This document shows, piece by piece, positions 1-59,257 of a stretch of DNA of 64,000 bases. The translations under genes and the position numbers were made by a program. The DNA lies in assembly GCA_040757625.1 (NCBI GenBank), contig JBFLWU010000007.1, forward strand, positions 1,110 through 65,109. The letters are read 5' to 3'. The DNA is from Thermodesulfobacteriota bacterium. GTDB lineage: Bacteria; Desulfobacterota; Desulfobacteria; Desulfobacterales; JARGFK01. The notes under the pieces were generated by a model that searched no databases, had not been told where the DNA came from, and worked only from the letters and a program-made list of their open reading frames with translations. The first letter of the stretch is position 1; each line of letters begins with the position of its first letter.

Positions 1-59
1 TGTTTGGATAAATGTTTTTTTACGGGTTTTACAAGGTACCACAGGCTGGATGACGAATA

Positions 60-158
60 GCAGGGAGGTTGAGAAAAAAGGGCGCAAGGCTTGCGGCGCG
101 GGACGGAAGCAAAAGGTTGAGGCTAAGGGGGAGGCTAAGGTTGAGGTTGCGATTTAGA
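60..158. repeat. word-array arm (AAGGTTGAGG / GGCTAAGG words), left arm of an inverted pair around the four-helix-bundle gene
   Basis: The arm reads ...AAAAGGTTGAGGCTAAGGGGGAGGCTAAGGTTGAGGTTGCGATTTAGA. Its complement words lie at 577-645. Confidence 0.7.
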
Positions 159-165
159 CTCATTT

Positions 166-540: not shown

Positions 541-576
541 TTTTTCACCAGTAACTCTTAAATCAGCAATCTTTTT

Positions 577-645
577 CTAAATCTCTCCTTCAACCTTTCC
601 CTTATTCTTCCATCCTTTCCTTAACCTTAGCCTTAACCTTTCCCT
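577..645. repeat. word-array arm (CCTTAACC / CCTTAGCC words), right arm of the inverted pair
   Basis: The arm reads TCTAAATCTCTCCTTCAACCTTTCCC...CCTTAACCTTAGCCTTAACCTTTCCC. Its inner end TCTAAATC mirrors GATTTAGA at 151-158. Confidence 0.7.
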
Positions 646-2864: not shown

Positions 2865-2894
2865 AATCTTTTTTTTGACAGGCAAATCATATCT

Positions 2895-3096
2895 CACCAC
2901 AGAGGCACAGAGGCCACGGAGAAGCTTTTCTTTTTGCCCATCGGGAGACGGCGATGGGCAAAAACTGCCTTATTAATCAAAGCATTGACGCCGCATAAGT
3001 TAATAGCAGCTACAGGACGCGTATTTAATCCGAACCGGCATCTCCCGGTTCAGATTAATAGATTCACCTCTCTGTGTCCTCTGTGCCTCTGTGGTG
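2895..3096. repeat. RE-A composite element (two inverted half-units)
   Basis: The left half is CACCACAGAGGCACAGAGGCCACGGAG plus hairpin TTTTGCCCATCG-GGAGACGG-CGATGGGCAAAA. The right half is hairpin (C)TGAACCGG-CATCTC-CCGGTTCAG plus CTCTGTGTCCTCTGTGCCTCTGTGGTG. Confidence 0.85.
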
Positions 3097-3101
3097 AAAA
3101 T

Positions 3102-3296
3102 TCAGTTTGCCAGGCGTTTTATGCCCTCTTTCAGCACATGCACATTAAAAATGATCAACAGGCCATGCTTTATACCGGCAATCTTTAGATAGGTCAGCAG
3201 CTGAGCCTCGTGAATCGGCGATATCTGCTCACAGGCCTTCAGTTCGATATTGGCAACATTTCCAAGCTGAGCAGGATTCTTTTCTTCAGCCGGCAT
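3102..3296 (-). pseudogene. truncated duplicate of the GxxExxY gene (C-terminal ~50 codons only)
   Basis: Positions 3101-3253 are near-identical at the DNA level to 3356-3508, the 3' end of the intact gene. The peptide [40 protein letters not shown] is retained. The N-terminal part is replaced by an RE-A half element. Confidence 0.8.
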
Positions 3297-3350
3297 CTCC
3301 CGACTGAAGAAAATATAATCTATCCTCTGTGTCCTCTGTGCCTCTGTGGT
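3271..3350. repeat. RE-A solo half-unit (CAGCCGG-stem subtype)
   Basis: The unit reads GCAGGATTCTTTTCTTCAGCCGG-CATCTC-CCGACTGAAGAAAA...CCTCTGTGTCCTCTGTGCCTCTGTGGT and ends 6 nt from the GxxExxY stop codon. Confidence 0.85.
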
Positions 3351-3356
3351 AAAAAT

Positions 3357-3740
3357 TCAGTTTGCCAGGCGTTTTATGCCCTCTTTCAGCACAGGCACAT
3401 TAAAATTGATCAACAGGCCATGCTTTATACCGGCAATCTTTAGATAGGTCAGCAGCTGAGCCTCGTGAATCGGCGATATCTGCTCACAGGCCTTCAGTTC
3501 GACAATCAGTTTGTCCGCAACAACCAGGTCCAGCCTGTAGCCGCAATCAACCTTCAAGCCTTTATATTCCACGGGCAACTCTTTTTGGCTGACAAAGGGA
3601 ATTTTTCTTAAATCAAGTTCCAGGCAAAGGCAGCGCTCGTAAGCGTTTTCAAGCAAGCCCGGCCCCAAAATCTTGTGGACTTCAATGGCGGCCCCGATTA
3701 CATCGCCGGTCAATTGGTTAATATCGCTATAGCTTTTCAA
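3357..3740 (-). CDS. GxxExxY protein (PD-(D/E)XK nuclease-fold family, TIGR04256/PF13366-like)
   Basis: 127 aa. GxxExxY motif GLLENAY; PD-(D/E)XK-like core [20 protein letters not shown] start 7 nt from a repeat terminus. Confidence 0.85.
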
Positions 3741-3747
3741 ATATAAT

Positions 3748-4126
3748 CACCACAGAGGCACGGAGAACACAGAGGGTACGCTTGTTTATTCGATCGGGAG
3801 ATGCCGATCGAATAAAAATCTGTCCGCTTATGAAAAATACCCTTAGATTTCCTCAGATCTCGATTATTCTTCTTTCAAATATTCAGGAACCGGATTTTGT
3901 TTATATTAAAACAGGATATGTGTTTTATCTGAACCGGCATCTCCCGGTTTAGACTAATAAATTTATCTCTCTGTGCCTTTGTGGTGAAATTATATTGGGC
4001 TGGTTTAAAGAACGCTTTGGGAATTGACAGTTATCAAGTTTTTCCAGGCAGGATCTTTTCTTCAGCCGGCATCTCCCGGCTGAAGAAAATCATTCTATCC
4101 TCCGTGACCTCTGTGTCTCCGTGGTG
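3748..4126. repeat. RE-A composite unit U1 (paired element 3748-3986 plus solo half 4045-4126)
   Basis: CACCACAGAGGCACGGAGAACACAGAGG plus hairpin TTTATTCGATCGG-GAGATG-CCGATCGAATAAA. Next comes hairpin TTATCTGAACCGG-CATCTC-CCGGTTTAGAC and ...CTCTGTGCCTTTGTGGTG. Then 14-bp stem TTTTCTTCAGCCGG-CATCTC-CCGGCTGAAGAAAA and ...CTCTGTGTCTCCGTGGTG. Confidence 0.85.
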
Positions 4127-4137
4127 AATTTAAGAGC

Positions 4138-32820: not shown

Positions 32821-33118
32821 GACATGAACACTTAAAATAATTAGGGGGTTATGTCAAGGAAAATAAGGCTGAAGGTTGAAGACTCAAGGCCGAAGGAGGA
32901 GTGAACTAATTGCTGATAAGCTGTTAAGCCATAAGGGCCGAGGGTCTAGGACTGAGTTACGAATAAAAGATGATAAAAACACGGCTTACGGCGTACGGCA
33001 AAGGGCAAATGATAAGCTGTTGAGCTGATGAGCCGGTAAGCAAATGGTTCAGGGCTCACAGCTCAGGCCGAATGAAACATGTAAAAAAGCAAGAAAGCTT
33101 GGAGGCTTTAAGGGATTG

Positions 33119-33325
33119 TATTGAACCGCAGAGACGCAAAGGTCGCCGAGTTTCTTATTGTTGCTTTTCGTTGAGAGGACGAAAAGCAAGCAGCTGAAAG
33201 CTCTTTTCATTGCCGGCCCCTCACCGGCAATGAAAATGAATCTTTCTTTGCGTTCTCTGCGTCTCGAGCGAAGCGGGCGGTGAACAAACCAAGGCGCCTC
33301 ACTTGTTACACCTGTCTCCCACCCT
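33119..33325 (+). repeat. RE-B element, long variant
   Basis: AACCGCAGAGACGCAAAGG, then hairpin TTGCTTTTCGT-TGAGAGG-ACGAAAAGCAA, the AGCTGAAAGC box and hairpin CATTGCCGG-CCCCTCA-CCGGCAATG. It ends with ...GCGTCTCGAGCGAAGCGGGCGGTGAA plus a CCTGTCTCCCACCCTTCC tail. Confidence 0.85.
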
Positions 33326-33338
33326 TCCAGCCTTAGCC

Positions 33339-34290: not shown

Positions 34291-34862
34291 ATTGCACCGC
34301 AAAGGCGCAAAGTTAGCAAAGATCATTTTCCTGTTGCTTTTCGCTGAGAAGGCGAAAAGCAATCGTCAACGCCCTTTCAGGGATATAAATTCCCACTGTC
34401 GAGCAAACACCCCTGATCAGAGAACGTGTTTGTTTAATAAAGCTGAAAGCTTTTTCCTTTGGCGTCCTCTCAACGGCAAAGGAAATTTCTTGGCGCCCTC
34501 AGCGTCTCGATCGCAGCGGGCGGTTGATTTCATGCTCTTCTTCAAAGCACTAGTTGGACCAGTATATCCATAGAACCGGCACCGCAAAGGCGCAAAGTTA
34601 GCAAAGATTATTTTCCTGTTGCTTTTCGCTGAGAAGGCGAAAAGCAAACGTCAACGCCCTTTCAGGGATATAAATTCCCACTGTCGAGCAAATGCACCTA
34701 ATACGAACATGTCCGTTTAATAAAGCTGAAAGCTTTTTCCTTTGGCGACCTCTCACCGGCAAAAGAAATTTCTTGGCGCCCTCTGCGTCCTGAGACTATC
34801 GAGCGGTTGATTTCATGCTCTTCTTCAAAACACCGGTTGGAACAGTATATCCATAGAACCGG
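34291..34862 (+). repeat. tandem duplication (periods 285 and 283 bp) of an expanded RE-B element
   Basis: CACCGCAAAGGCGCAAAGTT starts recur at 34295, 34580 and 34863. Each unit has hairpin TTGCTTTTCGC-TGAGAAG-GCGAAAAGCAA, a roughly 90-bp centre and a second hairpin of the type CCTTTGGCG(T)-CCTCTCA-(A)CGGCAAAGG. The array begins 14 nt upstream of the argF ATG. Confidence 0.9.
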
Positions 34863-35435
34863 CACCGCAAAGGCGCAAAGTTGGCAAAGATCATTTTCCT
34901 GTTGCTTTTCGCTGAGAAGGCGAAAAGCGAACATGATCACTTTATAACTTCAGAATCTTCAGGAAGTTCACGTACAACCCTAACGATTCCTTCCCGCATG
35001 AGCGCTACGTTAAAATTTAACAATAATCCCAACTGAAGACCGGACAATTTTAAATAGGTTAATAATTGGGCTTTATGAATCGGTTCGATTTCATTTACCG
35101 ATTTTAATTCAACAATTATTTGATCTTCAACAATGACATCCAACCGGTAACTACAGTCCAGTTTAATACCTTTATACTCAACAAATAACGGTTCCTGCCG
35201 TTTAAATTTTATACCCTTGAGGCTAAACTCACAGCAAAGACATTCCTCATACGTTGATTCAAGCAAACCGGGGCCAAGGTACTTATGAACTTCTATCGCC
35301 GACCCTATTATTTTATTGCTTAATTGATTGATATCCATTGTCAAGTCAATCGACAAGTTGAAAAGCTTTTTCCTTGACGGCCGCTCACCGTCAAGGAAAA
35401 AAATATTTCTCAGCGTCCTCGGCGCCTTTGCGGTG
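34863..35435 (+). mobile_element. RE-B element carrying a GxxExxY gene as cargo (candidate autonomous copy)
   Basis: Perfect 14-bp inverted termini, CACCGCAAAGGCGC (34863-34876) and GCGCCTTTGCGGTG (35422-35435). Hairpin 1 lies at 34904-34928. Hairpin 2, TTTTTCCTTGACGG-CCGCTCA-CCGTCAAGGAAAAA, lies at 35367-35401. Only the GxxExxY ORF lies between them. Mobility is an inference. Confidence 0.6.
34937..35356 (-). CDS. GxxExxY protein (PD-(D/E)XK nuclease-fold family)
   Basis: GLLESTY motif and [17 protein letters not shown] core. It is a paralogue of 3357-3740. The start is TTG 35356 or ATG 35338 (MDINQL). Confidence 0.85.
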
Positions 35436-35440
35436 AACCA

Positions 35441-37662: not shown

Positions 37663-37747
37663 GTTTTTTCCTTAAAATACTGTCTGTCTTTTTACTGTTG
37701 CTGGTTGCTTATTCCCACCTCAAAACGTTGCGGTAACAAGAACGATT

Positions 37748-37863
37748 GGACCGCAGAGACGCAAAGGTCGCAGGGTTTCTTATGGTTGCTTTTCGTTGAG
37801 AGGACGAAAAGCAAGCAGCTGAAAGCCCTTTTCATTGCGTTCTCAGCGTCTTTGCGGTGAAAT
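37748..37863 (+). repeat. RE-B element, short copy lacking hairpin 2
   Basis: GACCGCAGAGACGCAAAGG, hairpin 1 and AGCTGAAAGCCCTTTTCATTGC, joined directly to GTTCTCAGCGTCTTTGCGGTGAA. It lies in the argB-hslU spacer. Confidence 0.85.
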
Positions 37864-39357: not shown

Positions 39358-39513
39358 CACCGCAGAGGCGCAGAGGGCGCAAAGATTATTTTTTCTGTTG
39401 CCTTCTGCTGAGAGGCCGGAAGGCAAACAGGTAAAAGCTTTTTCATTGCCGGCCGCTCACCGGCAATGAAAAATACTATTTACCTCTGCGTTCTCAGCGC
39501 CTTTGCGGTTAAT
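39358..39513 (+). repeat. RE-B element
   Basis: CACCGCAGAGGCGCAGAGGGCGCAAAG, hairpin TTGCCTTC(T)G-CTGAGAGG-C(C)GGAAGGCAA and hairpin CATTGCCGG-CCGCTCA-CCGGCAATG, ending in CTCTGCGTTCTCAGCGCCTTTGCGGT. It lies in the hslU-hslV spacer. Confidence 0.85.
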
Positions 39514-40127: not shown

Positions 40128-40412
40128 ATTTTGTCCGTTGTCTGTTGTACGCTGTCCATCGCCTCGCCGATCTCAAAAATAATTGAACCGCAGAGGCGCA
40201 AAGGTCGCCGAGTTTCTTCTTATGGTTGCTTTTCGTTGAGAGGACGAAAAGCAAGCAGCTGAAAGCCCTTTTCATTGCCGGCCTCTCACCGGCTATGAAA
40301 ATGAATCTTTCTTTGCGTTCTCTGCGTCTCGAGCGAAGCGGGCGGTGAACAAACCAAGGCGCCTCACTTGTCACACCTGTCTCCCGCCCTTCCCGCCTTA
40401 AGCCGTTAGCCT
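40128..40412 (+). repeat. RE-B element, long variant
   Basis: Near-identical to 53113-53388, including the left extension ...CGCCTCGCCGATCTCAAAAATAATTGAACC and the right tail ...CCTGTCTCCCGCCCTTCCCGCCTTAAGCCGTTAGCC. It lies in the hslV-xerC spacer. Confidence 0.85.
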
Positions 40413-40670
40413 TGCGCCGTGAGCCTTCTCTGCCTACTCCCTCCTTTTTCTCAACCTCAAAGCTGGCCTTTCGCCTTTTGCCGCTGATAAGCTGTTGAGC
40501 TGTTCAGGCTTGCAGGCTGAAGGCTGAAGGTTATATCAGTGCCGAGTGACAAAGAACAGAATATTTTGGAGAGATCTTAATATAAACTGTCCCTTGCCAT
40601 AGTCCTTGATCCCGTCTGTTGTTACCTTCAGTCTTTAGTCTATTTACCTTCAGCCTTTCTTTCCGATCCC

Positions 40671-42212: not shown

Positions 42213-42431
42213 ATCCGGTTCCGTATCGGTTAAAATCTTTTCCTTAATTTACAGATAATAAGCTGTTAAACGATCAAGAACCGGCGCAAGATACTCGGCC
42301 CATGGCAGGCTAAGGTTCAGGTTAAGGTTTAGTCCCACTCTCAACCTCAACCTCAGCCTCAACTTTTTTTTCTGGCCCCCCGCTTTCTTTGCTGCCTACC
42401 GCTTATTGTCTACTGCTTAGTTTTCCCTGGC

Positions 42432-42610
42432 CGCGCCGATCTTAAAAATAATTGAACCGCAGAGGCGCAAAGGTCGCCGAGTTTCTTCTTATGGTTGCTT
42501 TTCGTTGAGAGGACGAAAAGCAAGCAGCTGAAAGCCCTTTTCATTGCCGGCCTCTCACCGGCAATGAAAATGAATCTTTCTTTGCGTTCTCAGCGTCTTT
42601 GCGGTGAAAT
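42432..42610 (+). repeat. RE-B element, canonical short form
   Basis: Terminus at 42456-42473, hairpin 1 at 42495-42523 (loop TGAGAGG), hairpin 2 at 42538-42570 (loop CCTCTCA), and right terminus ...GTTCTCAGCGTCTTTGCGGTGAA ending at 42608. Confidence 0.9.
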
Positions 42611-42691
42611 TAACCTCAGCCTTAACCTCAACCTTCTATTTCCTCACTCCCCGCTGCCCACCGCATAATTTTCCCTGGCTGCTGCTTTTGT

Positions 42692-43403: not shown

Positions 43404-43510
43404 GAGCTGATAAGCTGTTAAGCTGTTAAGCTTTCTCAACCTCAGCATCAACCTTTATTTATTTCTGCCTACTGCCTACTGCTTACTCCCTACTCCCCAC
43501 TTTTTCCCAA
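43404..43510 (+). repeat. RE-D word-mosaic repeat
   Basis: GAGCTGATAAGCTGTTAAGCTGTTAAGCTTTCTCAACCTCAGCATCAACCTTTATTTATTTCTGCCTACTGCCTACTGCTTACTCCCTACTCC... Partial copies start at about 46185 and 50281, and an inverted copy lies at 56361-56470. Confidence 0.8.
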
Positions 43511-43588
43511 CCTCAGCCTCAACCTTAACCTGCCGTAGGCCTTGGCCGTGCGCCGCTTATTTCAACCCGCAATCCGCAACCTGCTCCC

Positions 43589-44344: not shown

Positions 44345-44560
44345 GGCAATCTCCTTTTCGAGGCCTTTGCAAAACGCCCCCTTTTTACAAAGGTCCTGCT
44401 ATCAGGTTGAAGGGGGAAATCCCCTGAAACAAATTCGGTGTATGACGGAGGACCGGAAAGCACGGTTTCCGTAAATGCCCTCGGTGAAATTCAAAATTCA
44501 ACTATCGAAATTCGAAACCCATTCAAACAACAACATGTCCCAATAATTCAAACCCTGCAA

Positions 44561-44668
44561 TGTCAGCCACACCGACTCTTTGGATCATTTGAATTTCGGT
44601 CATTCGGTATAGTTTCGGGTTTGCGGCTATCGCCTTGAAAAAAGACGGGATTCATGCTTCGGATTTAG
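44561..44668 (+). repeat. RE-C repeat, copy 1
   Basis: TGTCAG...TTTGGATCATTTGAATTTCGGTCATTCGGTATAGTTTCGGGTTTGCGGCTATCGCC..TTGAAAAAAGACGGG. By-eye identity to 48797-48905 is about 80%. Its 3' end overlaps the last codons of the NfeD gene. Confidence 0.75.
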
Positions 44669-45962: not shown

Positions 45963-46014
45963 GGGGTTACTATAAACCTTATTTGATTTTTCAGCAAACA
46001 ATATTCAGAGGGCA

Positions 46015-46358
46015 GGCATATAGACTGAAGACTGAAGACCGAAGACTGAAGGCTAAAGGCATACGACACACGGCACATAAAAGCTGTTGAGCTGATAAGC
46101 TGTTAAGTAAACGGCTAACGGCTCACGGCGCAGGGCGGACGGTAAAGAAACAGGGCTGAGGGCAAAGGACTGAATAACGAATAAGAGCTGATAAGCTGTT
46201 TAGCATTCTCAACCTCAACCTTTTTCTTCAGCCGCGCGCCGTTTGCCGTGTGCCGTTTATTTATTTATTTCTTAGCCTTAGCCTCACCCTTAACCTCATC
46301 CTTTTATTATTGCCGACTGTCTGCCAACCTTCAGCCTTCAGCCCATTTACCTTCGGCC
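46015..46358. repeat. word-array mosaic forming a ~330-bp imperfect palindrome
   Basis: The left side has CTGAAG x4, GGCTAAAGG and ACGGCTCACGGCGCAGGGC. The right side has GCGCGCCGTTTGCCGTGTGCCGT, CCTTAGCC x2 and CTTCAGCC x2, in nested inverted order around position ~46205. Confidence 0.7.
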
Positions 46359-47136: not shown

Positions 47137-47365
47137 ATTCACCGCAAAGACGCTAAGCACGCAAAGATTGTTTACGGTTGCTTTCCGCTGAGACGCCGGA
47201 AAGCAACTGACAGTCATCCTCCGAAAATGCAGACTGCTTCCAACCGAAATCGATTTTCGTGGTTAACAAAGCTGAACGTTTTTCCTTTGCCGCTCTCTCA
47301 ACGGCAAAGGAAATGAACATCCTTTTCTCTGCGACCTTTGCGCCTTGAGCTAAGCGGGCGGTGGG
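47137..47365 (+). repeat. RE-B element, expanded-centre variant
   Basis: TTCACCGCAAAGACGCTAAGCACGCAAAG, hairpin GTTGCTTTCCG-CTGAGACGC-CGGAAAGCAAC, a roughly 80-bp centre and hairpin TTTTTCCTTTGCCG-CTCTCTCA-ACGGCAAAGGAAA. It ends with ...CCTTTGCGCCTTGAGCTAAGCGGGCGGTG. It lies in the UDG-coaBC spacer. Confidence 0.8.
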
Positions 47366-48657: not shown

Positions 48658-48796
48658 CGGAACACCGTCTCTTTTTATTTAACGCTTTGATTAAAGCCAT
48701 CCCGGCCCCGAGAACCAAGCCCAGAGAACATGATTTAAACAAACGCAATCGGCAAAATACGAAACCCGAAAATCGAAATTCGGAACAAATGGGCAC

Positions 48797-48905
48797 TGTC
48801 AGATAGGCACACTGTTTGGATCATTTGAATTTTGGCCGTTCGGCATTGTTTCGGATCTGCGGCTATCACCTCTTGAAAAAAAAGGGGTTGGTGCTTCGCA
48901 TTTAA
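48797..48905 (+). repeat. RE-C repeat, copy 2
   Basis: TGTCAG...TTTGGATCATTTGAATTTTGGCCGTTCGGCATTGTTTCGGATCTGCGGCTATCACC..TTGAAAAAAAAGGGG. It lies in the spacer upstream of coaBC. Confidence 0.75.
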
Positions 48906-50224: not shown

Positions 50225-50355
50225 GGCATACAACGCACGGCCGGTAAAGGTTGAGGTTAAGGTTAAGGTTAAGAAGCCGTTGAGCTGATAAGCTGTTAAG
50301 CTTTCTCAACCTCGGCCTCATCCTTAACCTCATCCTTTTATTATTGCCTACTGCT
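50225..50355 (+). repeat. word-array / RE-D partial copy
   Basis: AAGGTTGAGGTTAAGGTTAAGGTTAAG, then TTGAGCTGATAAGCTGTTAAGCTTTCTCAACCTCGGCCTCATCCTTAACCTCATCC...TGCCTACTGCTTAC. It abuts the murJ stop codon. Confidence 0.75.
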
Positions 50356-51965
50356 TACTTTCTTCCTACTTCTGTCTCCTGCTCCCCGTCCCCTGCTCCC
50401 TTTTTAGCGAAACGTTTTCCCAGCAGCGACAAGACCATTTCAAGTTCCGGAACCCGGGCCAGGTAGGAGAAAACGCCGTAGCTGACCAGGCCGGCGCCGA
50501 TGGTGACCACCAGGCCCGACAACAGGCGCAGGGCGCTGATATTTCCGCCCGGAATGGCCGCCAGCGCCACGCCCCAGACCGCCACCCCCATGGCCGCCGA
50601 ACATACGACGGTCTTGAGTATGGAATCCCGGGCGACTTCCCATCCCAGGCTCCCCAACCGGGCCCGCAAGACTTTGAGCAGGAGCACGAGATTTACCATG
50701 GCGGCCAGGGATGTCGCCAGGGCCAGGCCGCCATGCCGGAGCCACTGCATTAAAATAACGCTCAGGGCAACGTTGGCAGCCAGAGAAATTGCCGCCATGC
50801 GCACCGGCGTTTTGGTGTCCTTGAGGGCGTAAAAGGTGGACACCACGATTCTGACGGCTGAAATTGCCCATAACCCCACAGCATAATACAAAAGCGCCAT
50901 GGCCGTCATCCGGACGGTCTCCGCGTTAAACGCCCCCCGCTGAAACAGGAGGGCAACAATCGGCTGCCGCAGAACGATCAGGCCGACCATGGCCGGTATC
51001 GTGATATAGGATACCAGGTTCATGGCATATACAAAGGTGGTCCGCAGCGCCGCAAAATCCCGGGCGGCCGCCTGGCGCGAGAGGCTTGGTAAAACCGCCG
51101 TAGCCGTAGCGATGGCAAAAATACCCAGGGGAAATTCAACCAGCCGATCGGCATAATACAGATAGGAGACGCTCCCCTCTGGCAGCAGGGACGCCAGCAG
51201 GGTGCCGATCAGGATGTTGATCTGATAGACCGCAGCCCCGAAAACGGTGGGCAGCATCAACACGCCCACCTGCTTGAGCCCGGGATGATAGAAGCCGGCC
51301 TTTTGCCAGAAACGCAGCCCGTTGCGGATCAGAAACGGAACCTGCAGCAGCAGCTGCAGGGCGCCGCCGATGAGCACACCCACAGCAAGCCCGATGATCG
51401 GCTCGTCAAGATGGGGTGAAATCAGAAAGACCGACCCGATCATGGCGATATTTAAAAAAACCGGCGCCAGGGCCGGCGCGGCAAAGTGGCCGAGCACATT
51501 CAGGATGCCCATGGACAGGGCCACCAGCCCGATGAAAAAAATATACGGAAACATGATCCGGGTCAGGGTCACCGTGAGGGCCAGCTTTTCCGGCGATTCC
51601 GCGAACCCGACCCCGACGATACGGACGATCAGCGGGGACAGCAGGATCCCCAGAACGGCAACCACGGCCAGCAAAACGGAAATCAGCCGCAGCGCCGCCC
51701 GGGCCAGCAGGAAGGCTTCTTCTTTGCCGTTGCGGGCGAGATGGTCCGTAAAAACCGGAATAAAGGCGATGCTTAAGGAACCCTCGGCCAGGAGGCGCCG
51801 GAGCAGATTGGGTATGCGGAATGCCACAAAAAAGGCATCGGACGCCAGCCCGGCGCCGAAAAACCAGGCGACCACCACATCCCGGATAAAACCGAAAATC
51901 CGGCTGAGTAATGTGGCGCCCGCGACAACACCGGCAGCCTTGGTTACACGGATATTTTCAGACAT
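50355..51965 (-). CDS. murJ: lipid II flippase MurJ
   Basis: About 536 aa with LSRIFGFIRDVVVAWFFGAG...DAFFVAFRIPNLLRRLLAEG. I prefer the ATG at 51965. Confidence 0.9.
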   Translation of the reverse strand: MSENIRVTKAAGVVAGATLLSRIFGFIRDVVVAWFFGAGLASDAFFVAFRIPNLLRRLLAEGSLSIAFIPVFTDHLARNGKEEAFLLARAALRLISVLLAVVAVLGILLSPLIVRIVGVGFAESPEKLALTVTLTRIMFPYIFFIGLVALSMGILNVLGHFAAPALAPVFLNIAMIGSVFLISPHLDEPIIGLAVGVLIGGALQLLLQVPFLIRNGLRFWQKAGFYHPGLKQVGVLMLPTVFGAAVYQINILIGTLLASLLPEGSVSYLYYADRLVEFPLGIFAIATATAVLPSLSRQAAARDFAALRTTFVYAMNLVSYITIPAMVGLIVLRQPIVALLFQRGAFNAETVRMTAMALLYYAVGLWAISAVRIVVSTFYALKDTKTPVRMAAISLAANVALSVILMQWLRHGGLALATSLAAMVNLVLLLKVLRARLGSLGWEVARDSILKTVVCSAAMGVAVWGVALAAIPGGNISALRLLSGLVVTIGAGLVSYGVFSYLARVPELEMVLSLLGKRFAKKGAGDGEQETEVGRK

Positions 51966-53112: not shown

Positions 53113-53388
53113 GGTTACTTGTTGTCCGTTGTTCATTGCCTCGCCGATCTCAAAAATAATTGAACCGCAGAGGCGCAAAGGTCGCCGAGTTTCTTATGGT
53201 TGCTTTTCGTTGAGAGGACGAAAAGCAAGCAGCTGAAAGCCCTTTTCATTGCCGGCCTCTCACCGGCGATGAAAATAAATCTTTCTTTGCGTTCTCTGCG
53301 TCTCAAGCGAAGCGGGCGGTGAACAAACCAAGGCGCCTCACTTGTCACACCTGTCTTCCGCCCTTCCCGCATTAAGCCGTCAGCCTTT
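53113..53388 (+). repeat. RE-B element, long variant
   Basis: See 40128-40412. It lies in the leuS-lptE spacer. Confidence 0.85.
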
Positions 53389-53613
53389 TTCTGTCAACTG
53401 CTTACCCCCTACTGCTTACTCTCTGCCTACTTTTTTCCAACCTCAGCCTTAACCTTAATCTGTTCTTTGCCGTTTGCCCTGCGCCGCAAGCCGTGCGCCT
53501 TTATTGTCTACTCCCTACTTTTTCTCTACCTCAACCTCGCCTCAACCTTCTACCTATTATATTATATCTTCCCCTGCGTCTTAACCCGTTAGCCGTTCGC
53601 CGTAAGCCGGCAC

Positions 53614-56217: not shown

Positions 56218-56360
56218 TCCTGATGTCCTCCAGAATCATTCGCAAATTGCTTCTATAACAGAATAAAATTACATGACACAATACCATCTAAATATCAAGT
56301 CAGTAGATTGAAGGAGATTACGGATTGCGGATTGAAATCAAAAACGGCGCAGGAACAGGT

Positions 56361-56470
56361 TGGAAAAAAGTAGGGAGCAGGGAGTAAGCAGTAGGCAGTA
56401 GGCAGAAATAAATAAAGGTTGATGCTGAGGTTGAGAAAGCTTAATAGCTTAACAGCTTATCAGCTCAACA
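56361..56470 (-). repeat. RE-D word-mosaic repeat (inverted copy)
   Basis: My hand alignment of its reverse complement to 43404-43510 shows only a few mismatches or indels over about 105 bp. Confidence 0.8.
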
Positions 56471-56682
56471 GCTTTTATGCGCCGTGAGCCGTGTGCCGTG
56501 CGCCGTGAACCCTGGGCCGCAAGCCCCATTGGCCCGCGCGGTGATAACGATTAATATCTTTGGGATATTACAGCAAAAATCATTTGACTTGTATAGGCTA
56601 ATTTCATATTTAGAATCCATGCTTTCCGGGATAATAGTTCCGGAAACGAACACCATCTTCAACGTTAAAGGCTTTAAATAAA

Positions 56683-58920: not shown

Positions 58921-59257
58921 ACCGGCGACCTGTCGGGGATCGGGGGATGAAGCCGGAGGCAGGCAAGAGAAAGAAAAAGGTTGAGGTTGAGACGGCACGC
59001 GGCTCACGGAGTAAGAGAAGGCTGAGGTTGAGGTTGATAAAGCTTAACAGCTCAATTGCTTTTTCTCAGTCCTCAGTTCTTTGAACTGGCTCTTTTTCAG
59101 TTCAACAGCTTCTCGGCCTTGACCTGTTTTTTGCCGTGCACCTGCGCCGTCTGCCGTGCGCCGTTTTAGTAACGGGCTGAAAACTGCAGGTATAATGGCC
59201 GTCAAAACAAAATATTTGACGTCCGTCGACATTTAAAGTATATCGTACCATTTTTAA

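Follow-up and report, generated by a model that had tools for sequence, protein, structure and literature searches.

How does a patchwork of short tandem words come to stand twice, almost letter for letter and in opposite orientations, in two spacers of one chromosome, and is it an isolated event or part of a wider system? The question is raised by a 110-nt composite in a 64,000-nt stretch of the genome of a Thermodesulfobacteriota bacterium (Desulfobacterales; contig JBFLWU010000007.1, positions 1,110 to 65,109), referred to here as the window. The mosaic of 110 bp belongs, as one block among many, to a lineage-wide system of long simple sequence repeats in the spacers of this Desulfobacterales chromosome, resembling the short tandemly repeated repetitive (STRR) sequences of cyanobacteria. 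The tracts of this system are restricted to spacers and mostly form imperfect hairpins in which the G-rich arm comes first, and blocks of several words are occasionally copied from one spacer to another. Tandem repeats with units of 6–9 nt are among the least understood non-coding features of bacteria; knowledge of them in cyanobacteria dates back to 1990, yet to our knowledge no function or mechanism has been assigned to them.

The inverted pair and its family

The composite at 43404-43513 (copy 1) aligns without gaps to the reverse complement of 56357-56466 (copy 2), with 106 of 110 positions identical (96%). The original prediction, which was made by reading the letters of the window, had described a mosaic of ~105 bp recurring in inverted orientation 13 kb away; the pair is real, and chance cannot account for a match of this kind. 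A gapped alignment extends the homology beyond 110 nt, to 43404-43585 on one side and 56312-56466 on the other, across a 27-nt insertion or deletion of whole words (a 6-mer tract and GCCGT words) that is present only in copy 1. Because both copies resume with ATTTCAAYCCGCAATCCGYAAYC past this indel, the copied stretch measures ~182 nt in copy 1 and ~155 nt in copy 2. The pair is composed as follows.

43404..43513, + strand: copy 1 of the 110-nt composite (alignment and tandem-repeat listing), made of 8-mer words RAGCTGWT (43404-43432), TTCTC with 6-mer words AACCTC/AGCATC/AACCTT (43433-43455), a T-rich linker (43456-43464), 7-mer words CTGCCTA/CTACTCC (43465-43501) and then TTTTCCCAACCT.
43514..43585, + strand: continuation of copy 1, with a 6-mer tract (43508-43531), GCCGT words (43532-43558) and CGCAAYC 7-mers (43563-43581), this last block being again homologous to copy 2.
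56357..56466, − strand: copy 2, the inverted partner in the alignment.
56312..56356, − strand: continuation of copy 2, GCGCCGT then CAATCCGCAATCCGTAATC, without the 27-nt word block.
56467..56519, + strand: right side of the copy 2 spacer, one further 8-mer word and then a GCCGTGN 7-mer tract (56481-56519).

Copy 1 is located between the stop codon of a Band7 gene (43589) and the start of a Rho_N-domain gene (43186), both on the − strand, and its + strand is C-rich and G-poor (36 C and 12 G of 110). Copy 2 occupies the spacer between the divergent genes leuS and rng. There it stands upstream of a promoter-proximal block that three relatives (L120, L121 and L122) have conserved; the words on the left of this spacer are G-rich and those on the right C-rich. 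A start codon lies ~217 nt downstream of each copy, and the two copies are oriented alike with respect to the gene that begins there. Both are G-rich on the sense strand of the flanking gene or genes, and the antisense strand is C-rich and unstructured.

The pair has smaller relatives. A core of ~45 nt, consisting of two or three 8-mer words, TTTCTC and AACCTC-type 6-mers (GAGCTGATAAGCTGTTAAGC-TTTCTC-AACCTCAGCCTCA), recurs at 46185-46228, at 50282-50325 and, inverted, at 59018-59061. Partial copies had been predicted at ~46185, 50281 and ~58990; all three exist, although what they have in common is mainly this core. The 16-mer at the junction, AAGCTTTCTCAACCTC, occurs five times in the window at two mismatches or fewer, against 0.07 expected; a 23-mer of the junction, searched for in JGI metagenomes, gave no match. 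The right part of copy 1 (43493-43532) has a relative at 53423-53462 that is 88% identical. The related composites number at least five, a small family in which the long pair is the youngest. Since multi-word blocks with conserved junctions recur elsewhere, the pair is no isolated segmental duplication, the case against which the idea of a modular system had been set. The grammar proposed for that system is borne out as far as the ~45-nt core and a general polarity (G-rich left, C-rich right) are concerned; beyond these there is no fixed word order. Junction AAGCTTTCTCAACCTC and T-rich linkers are the only linking parts that recur, and order elsewhere varies among spacers. The relatives of the pair lie in the following elements, three of them with no strand assigned.

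50243..50354, no strand: complete word hairpin with a core copy; G-rich arm (GGTTAA)n (50243-50273), apical 8-mers (50274-50302), C-rich arm (50302-50331), then a TTTTATTATT linker and a CTACTGC word.
46002..46346, no strand: 345-nt spacer consisting nearly throughout of nested word tracts (AGACTGA, ACGGC, 8-mers, GCCGT, CTTAGCC/AACCTC, CCTTCAG), folding as a long imperfect hairpin with its core copy inside.
58985..59164, no strand: spacer mosaic in a + strand gene block, with GGTTGAGG and ACGGC words, the inverted core, and CTCAGTC and GCCGTGC words.
53384..53613, + strand: one-sided tract mosaic, C-rich on the + strand, containing the relative of the right end of copy 1.

Word tracts in the spacers

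The spacers of the window were inspected one by one, and tandem tracts were listed by Tandem Repeats Finder (TRF). Nearly all native spacers from 31.5 kb onward, and those at 1-5.3 kb, consist largely of degenerate tandem words. This agrees with the earlier reading, which had placed such words in almost all spacers past 31.6 kb and at 60-645; at the latter site they extend over 1-645. The words fall into families by period: RAGCTGWT (8 nt); ARCCTY (6 nt); CTACTSC, GCCGTKN, AGRCTGA and CGCAAYC (7 nt); and CCTCTGTG and CGCAGAGG (8-9 nt). Period-6-9 tracts of 2.5-6 copies are listed by TRF throughout the spacers of the window, and GCTGWTRAGCTGWTRAGC occurs nine times in it against an expectation of 0.00. 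The spacers of a low-GC island at 5.3-31.5 kb contain no word tracts.

In the window, its relatives and the loci around rng taken together, tract density is 40-63 bp/kb in spacers and 4.1 bp/kb in open reading frames (ORFs), so that tracts are at least ten times denser in spacers than in genes. In the same set, 28% of co-directional, 23% of divergent and 23% of convergent spacers bear tracts. Tracts begin a median of 47 nt past the upstream stop codon. With their recurring multi-word blocks and conserved junctions, the tracts are not random low-complexity sequence; they are modular and dispersed, as had been proposed.

Inverted pairing and polarity

Adjacent tracts of equal period within 400 nt of each other were scored as pairs. 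The window and its relatives hold 29 inverted-complement pairs and three direct ones. The comparison was extended by a scan of genome contigs with the 8-mer pattern, which returned at least 119 loci from other phyla, selected by that pattern; among the matches listed, 34 pairs are inverted and 15 direct, giving 63 inverted versus 18 direct pairs in total. Where the pair has a clear G/C skew, other phyla included, 53 of 57 inverted pairs have their G-rich array in front, and four have the C-rich one there (binomial p 6e-12). This property reads the same on either strand, so the orientation in which loci are presented is no explanation. The arms contain 34.5% G and 11.8% C versus 13.7% G and 31.8% C, with A and T equal.

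Polarity is also visible within single spacers. On the sense strand of co-directional spacers, tracts in the first third are G-rich rather than C-rich by 54:7 and those in the last third C-rich by 30:6; 48 spacers run from G to C and four from C to G, while 63 hold only G-rich and 33 only C-rich tracts. The long pair fits the rule: copy 1 is C-rich and stands on the right of its spacer, whereas its inverted twin is G-rich and stands on the left of the other spacer, followed by GCCGTG words. A restriction of the polarity to spacers crossed by transcription was considered: at the level of tracts, conformity is lower in divergent spacers (61% versus 77%, p 0.05), yet the clear inverted pairs there are G-first without exception (5:0).

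Turnover between relatives

The orthologous leuS|rng spacer was compared in the three relatives named above. The promoter-proximal block (…CAGCAAAAAT..TTTGACTTGTA…) is retained in L120, whose RNase G is 95% identical, and in L121 (88%), while the words in the remainder of the spacer are entirely different: AGGAGYCAGAAG, ACGGCTNA and GCCGTG in the former, GCGGGKT and GCAACCC in the latter. The spacer of L122 (77%) contains no tracts. Among 80 related loci collected by a scan anchored on the NfeD protein, period-6-9 tracts make up between 0 and 75 bp/kb (20.5 in the window), and each organism has a vocabulary of its own (ATTGAAG, ATGGAATG, ATTGAGGA, AACCGGCA and others). Between the loci L169 and L178, which share 91% identity, the alignment is interrupted at the tract spacers; one tract has 22 copies in the former and ~5 in the latter.

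The spacer that runs from the NfeD stop codon to the ribosome-binding site (RBS) of Band7 exists in four alleles among five contigs with 99.8% identity over up to 12 kb. Two of these are unrelated word hairpins (GGCTGAAGGTTGAAGACTGAAGG… and GTTCGGTTGTCGGTT…AACCGTGAACCGTG); the other two are variants of them with a different number of words, one lacking a single 7-nt word and the other changed in both arms, in sequence too. The NfeD stop codon itself belongs to the variable part. These comparisons show the tracts to be hypervariable, with a word content that turns over completely between close relatives.

Comparable blocks are found in other genomes. An uncultured Thermodesulfobacteriota metagenome-assembled genome (MAG) has a conserved composite of its own at three sites (L026, 4089-4107 on the + strand and 504-521 on the − strand; L113, 2831-2849 on the + strand), in which 8-mer words (GCTGWTAAGC) are followed by AAAGACAYAAAAGCTAAAGCTTTTTCTTG and further words. 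Genome-specific multi-word blocks are thus not unique to the window; this second composite is built on the same 8-mer words. In a different phylum, the Thermoanaerobaculia MAG SMAG_U3429 (L002, L025, L086, L108 and L118) has a family of hairpins with tandem-word arms: an 8-mer array (AGCTGTTG/AGCTGCTC), a similar centre of ~35 nt (GAGRGA…TTCAAA…CTCTC) and an inverted 8-mer array.

Folding and motif tests

Compared with dinucleotide shuffles, the 110-nt piece shows no gain in folding on either of its strands (z −0.5 to −1.1). Some whole spacers do fold strongly, because their G-rich and C-rich tracts face each other with complementary words: z is −5.2/−6.0 for 46002-46346, −3.9/−5.5 for 50225-50354 and −1.3/−3.5 for 42290-42450. 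In the fold of 50225-50354, (GGTTAA)n pairs with an AACCTC-type arm and the 8-mer words lie at the apex. The core of the five copies corresponds to the apex and 3′ arm of a hairpin such as 50243-50331, which makes the two long copies half-hairpins without a partner arm. One-sided C-rich mosaics, at 53340-53613 (z +1.4/+2.2) and 541-644, are less structured than shuffles. When RNA of the two senses is compared, 22 hairpins are more stable in the sense and 14 in the antisense direction, with 207 versus 149 G-U pairs (p 0.06).

The G-rich strand has GG-N4-GG runs, from which only two-tetrad quadruplexes are predicted to be possible. Folding of the G-rich strands by ViennaRNA with G-quadruplex (G4) energies puts no meaningful quadruplex in the optimal fold, the sole one (113-149) gaining 0.1 kcal/mol, and the suggestion of two-tetrad quadruplexes finds no support there. 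A known RNA family or small RNA (sRNA) was rejected: an Rfam search with the 110-nt piece gave no match at the gathering threshold or at E<=1, and no predicted promoter or terminator flanks the element. A stop-codon trap, with period-7/8 words placing TGA or TAA in all three frames after genes, was rejected: first arms contain such stops in 37 of 63 cases, against 34.5 expected from composition, and an excess of TGA is confounded because TGA may be part of the pattern by which many loci had been chosen. Shine–Dalgarno (SD)-like and CsrA-type GGA motifs in the G-rich arms are not enriched beyond composition. The orientation of the 8-mers tracks gene direction (nine on the + strand, two on the − strand). 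Replication-oriented octamers like the FtsK-orienting polar sequences (KOPS) are ruled out, since the words occur only in tandem clusters in spacers, and so are phase-variation contingency loci as a general role, the flanking genes being housekeeping genes.

Setting and other elements of the window

The window carries housekeeping genes (argF/D/B, hslUV, xerC, coaBC, murJ, lptE, leuS, rng and secDF). Up to 56217 the genes are encoded on the − strand; past 56683 the + strand predominates. Its RNase G is 72-78% identical to those of Desulfonema and Desulfobacteraceae MAGs, the nearest named relatives, and 86-95% identical to proteins from sediment metagenomes. The low-GC island (5339-31504, 35-45% GC) is a polysaccharide and glycosyltransferase region with tightly packed genes; the lack of word tracts in its spacers suggests that it is foreign or recently acquired. 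Further tracts are listed here.

42306..42363, no strand: short word hairpin, (AGGTTA)n then (CTCAAC)n, then T8.
32865..33040, + strand: left side of the HTH|argF spacer, G-rich words AAGGCTG and ACGGCGT and 8-mer tracts.
40400..40530, + strand: C-rich words, 8-mer words (40483-40507) and AGGCTGA words.
1..165, + strand: G-rich tracts (GGTTGAGG, GGCTAAGG) on one side of a gene for a 23S-rRNA intervening-sequence protein (IVP); 74-127 is an inverted relative of 46208-46261.
541..644, + strand: C-rich tracts (CCTTAA, CCTTTCC) on the other side of the IVP gene.

As T8 follows the (AGGTTA)n/(CTCAAC)n hairpin on the + strand, the element at 42295-42375 resembles an intrinsic terminator that would act on antisense transcripts of the local genes.

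Inverted blocks enclose each of two PDDEXK_3 (GxxExxY-type) genes, a 48-aa fragment of such a gene, and the IVP gene, which encodes a four-helix bundle (genes at 166-540, 3105-3248, 3357-3740 and 34937-35356; flanks at 2891-3356, 3741-4137 and 34862-35440). The PDDEXK_3 blocks measure ~70 nt and combine a CACAGAGG- or CGCAAAGG-type tract with a hairpin whose loop is of the GGGAGATGCC or TGAGAAGG type (GAGAGG-like), while the IVP gene is framed solely by GGTTGAGG/CCTTAACC word tracts. These units look like cassettes and recall rRNA intervening sequences. Family D1, a dispersed element of 216 nt with two hairpins whose loops are mutually complementary (TGAGAGG / CCTCTCA) and inverted CGCAGAGG-type tracts around them, appears to be a gene-less form of the PDDEXK_3 cassette. 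It is located at 33120-33335, 40185-40400, 42454-42669 and 53159-53374, and also at 37737-37838, 39359-39512, 47138-47363 and 34294-34932; copies are 62-94% identical to the reference copy, and the last site holds a 283-nt version in tandem (2.2 repeats). A general link between word tracts and these cassettes was rejected. IVP or PDDEXK_3 genes are framed by tracts in the window and in locus L116, and only three of the 119 pattern-selected loci, among the matches listed, hold one; elsewhere housekeeping genes lie between tract pairs.

Two further features concern neighbouring genes. A 95-nt repeat, unrelated to the word tracts, is present in two spacers, those that precede Band7 and coaBC (44557-44649 and 48793-48887, 79% identical). 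The 3′ end of murJ (50355-50400) consists of word-like repeats of period 14, GTCCCCTGCTCCCC, with the stop codon inside a CTGCTTAC word. MurJ has 540 aa in the window versus 524 aa in L121, and a word tract seems to have extended the reading frame.

Proposed origin and possible role

We favour, with somewhat better than even confidence, an account in which STRR-like mosaics grow by slippage, are copied in blocks and act as hairpins in transcripts. Replication slippage would change the number of words; the allele without one 7-nt word and the 27-nt whole-word indel of the long pair are direct examples. Multi-word blocks would spread from spacer to spacer through ectopic recombination, gene conversion or template switching and not through a transposase. 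Paired arrays would fold in transcripts as long imperfect hairpins that separate or stabilise neighbouring messages; punctuation at the RNA level is probably their function, although we hold this part less firmly. The hairpins of repetitive extragenic palindromes (REPs) and bacterial interspersed mosaic elements (BIMEs) have likewise been proposed to punctuate or stabilise transcripts. C-rich, G-poor, unpaired RNA is an established signature of Rho loading sites, and the G-first rule may reflect selection against exposing such RNA before its partner has been made. The antisense strand of the long copies, being C-rich and unstructured, could by the same token stop antisense transcripts.

Several observations weigh against this account. 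The 110-nt piece, from which the enquiry set out, lacks a partner arm and does not fold significantly, and the greater stability of sense over antisense hairpins is only a trend (p 0.06). The few clear pairs in divergent spacers are also G-first (5:0), which selection through transcription across the spacer does not predict. The swap of a whole allele at exact boundaries, in strains that are otherwise 99.8% identical, looks cassette-like. Finally, the 8-mer family GCTGWTRA recurs, among the matches listed, in Thermoanaerobaculia, Bacteroidota, Fermentibacteria and others, so that slippage alone is insufficient.

The cassette-like swap, exact between stop codon and RBS, is one reason to consider non-autonomous mobile elements akin to REP doublets forming hairpins (REPINs) or to miniature inverted-repeat transposable elements (MITEs), with word hairpins moved as cassettes by an enzyme supplied in trans. 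The same explanation would suit the five or more copies with a conserved junction, one pair of them 96% identical, the separate conserved composite of another MAG, and the PDDEXK_3 and IVP genes and gene-less 216-nt relatives framed by inverted word tracts in the window. Yet the composite copies, when aligned, show no terminal inverted repeats, target-site duplications or constant ends; their ends are ragged at the level of words, and identity decays word by word. No transposase or REP-associated tyrosine transposase (RAYT) was found among the 35 window ORFs scanned against Pfam, the sole integrase being xerC, which adjoins hslVU, and the rarity of IVP and PDDEXK_3 genes at the pattern-selected loci, where housekeeping genes lie between tract pairs, is a further objection. 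We consider mobility of this kind unlikely. The recurrence of words would also be expected, and with still lower probability in our estimate, if arrays were multi-site platforms for a DNA- or RNA-binding protein such as a nucleoid protein, a global regulator, S1, Csp or CsrA. AGRCTGA and RCCGTGA are common to the window and to loci L195/L196, GCTGWTRA crosses phyla among the matches listed, and platforms of this kind have been proposed for Beggiatoaceae (S1, Csp or CsrA for TAACTGA; PMC4679880), Geobacter (PMC2700814) and Nostoc (bioRxiv 10.1101/2022.06.06.494920). A binding protein is hard to reconcile with vocabularies that differ wholly between close relatives and between alleles of one spacer, with several unrelated words side by side, with periods of 6, 7, 8 and 9 nt that share no helical phase, with the roughly equal use of co-directional, divergent and convergent spacers, or with SD-like and GGA motifs at the level set by composition.

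The G-first pairs of divergent spacers bear on another explanation, which is more doubtful again: arrays may be written by DNA synthesis at free 3′ ends in non-coding DNA, reiterating a short G-rich unit, followed by snap-back or rejoining. Such synthesis could belong to break healing or to the extension of stalled ends, and would resemble telomere-like G-strand addition or the templated insertion of polymerase-theta-like or reverse-transcriptase-like enzymes. Whether or not a spacer is transcribed, it would give G-first arrays on both strands (53:4), divergent spacers included, as well as hairpin swaps with exact boundaries and words in distant phyla. Least probable of all, and scarcely credible to us, is that the 110-nt copies are sRNA genes or G4 elements. 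The placing of both near-identical copies ~217 nt upstream of a start codon, in one orientation to the gene, and the GG-N4-GG spacing of the G-rich strand would suit them; the Rfam search, the shuffle-like fold, the want of predicted flanking promoters or terminators and the optimal folds free of any meaningful G4 all speak against them, as does the absence of the element from the orthologous spacer of L120, despite its 95%-identical RNase G.

The window and its relatives offer three handles for study: a strict polarity found in several phyla, a population-level hairpin swap that runs from stop codon to RBS, and the copying of multi-word blocks. Should the polarity serve to keep Rho from loading, long intergenic RNA would obey a general design rule; should it stem from the mode in which arrays are synthesised, it would point to an undescribed DNA-writing process. 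In practice, the tracts can serve as hypervariable markers, but they endanger assembly and the prediction of operons and promoters in metagenome-assembled Desulfobacterales genomes.

Comparison with known repeat systems

The original prediction likened the logic of the mosaic to that of BIMEs. Like the REP, BIME and REPIN elements of enterobacteria and pseudomonads, the window elements are extragenic, present in many spacers, and built of short modules in a mosaic of both orientations that can form mRNA hairpins. The likeness goes no further: the units are tandem words of 6-9 nt (6-8 nt in the 110-nt piece, whose fold z is given above) with no palindromic unit of ~35-40 nt, content is not conserved within the lineage, alternating units with conserved linkers are not seen, and the scanned ORFs include no RAYT. 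The window elements are not members of the REP or BIME families.

Cyanobacterial STRRs and other long simple sequence repeats (SSRs) offer a better comparison. In these classes units of 5-11 nt stand head to tail in three or more copies; the period-6-9 tracts of the window fit this description, and they too are intergenic and dispersed and, except in the 110-nt piece, face inverted arrays. STRRs share tandem short units, typically of 7 nt, in dispersed intergenic arrays that face inverted arrays and so form hairpins; those between hupS and hupL have been proposed to act in transcript stability or translational coupling (PMC2670836). They differ in their host, which here is a member of the Desulfobacterales and not a cyanobacterium, probably in their words (here RAGCTGWT, ARCCTY, CTACTSC, GCCGTKN and AGRCTGA), and in that families of period 6, 7, 8 and 9 are here concatenated in one spacer and multi-word blocks are copied. 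Long SSRs were surveyed by Mrazek (2007), in whose work, as summarised in PMC4679880, repeats with 5-11-nt units are sporadic and mostly intergenic, heptanucleotides are the commonest unit and slippage is proposed as the generator. Sporadic distribution and slippage are common to both; as far as that summary goes, the arrays there are single, whereas the window has mosaics with inverted partners and polarity.

Two heptamer systems also belong to the closest known kinds. TAACTGA repeats of marine Beggiatoaceae, cyanobacteria and Bacteroidetes (MacGregor 2015, PMC4679880) are abundant intergenic tandem heptamers, and here too one word is found in distant phyla with no evident mechanism of transfer. 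They consist of a single word, almost always in direct orientation just upstream of start codons, whereas here many words occur, mostly in inverted pairs, and no TAACTGA array was matched in the window at two mismatches or fewer. Geobacter metallireducens has 4-5 tandem heptanucleotides (GGGACCG; MTYCTGA) at many intergenic sites, read as regulatory (Aklujkar 2009, PMC2700814); these are likewise heptanucleotide families in many spacers of a deltaproteobacterial-type genome, but they form conserved families of fixed length, some inside genes, whereas the number and identity of words are hypervariable here. In the literature that we searched, we did not find a description of several families concatenated in one spacer, of a G-first rule across phyla, or of the swap of a whole hairpin in a 99.8%-identical population. 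The kind of element to which the 110-bp mosaic belongs is known; the polarity rule and the replacement of alleles may be new.

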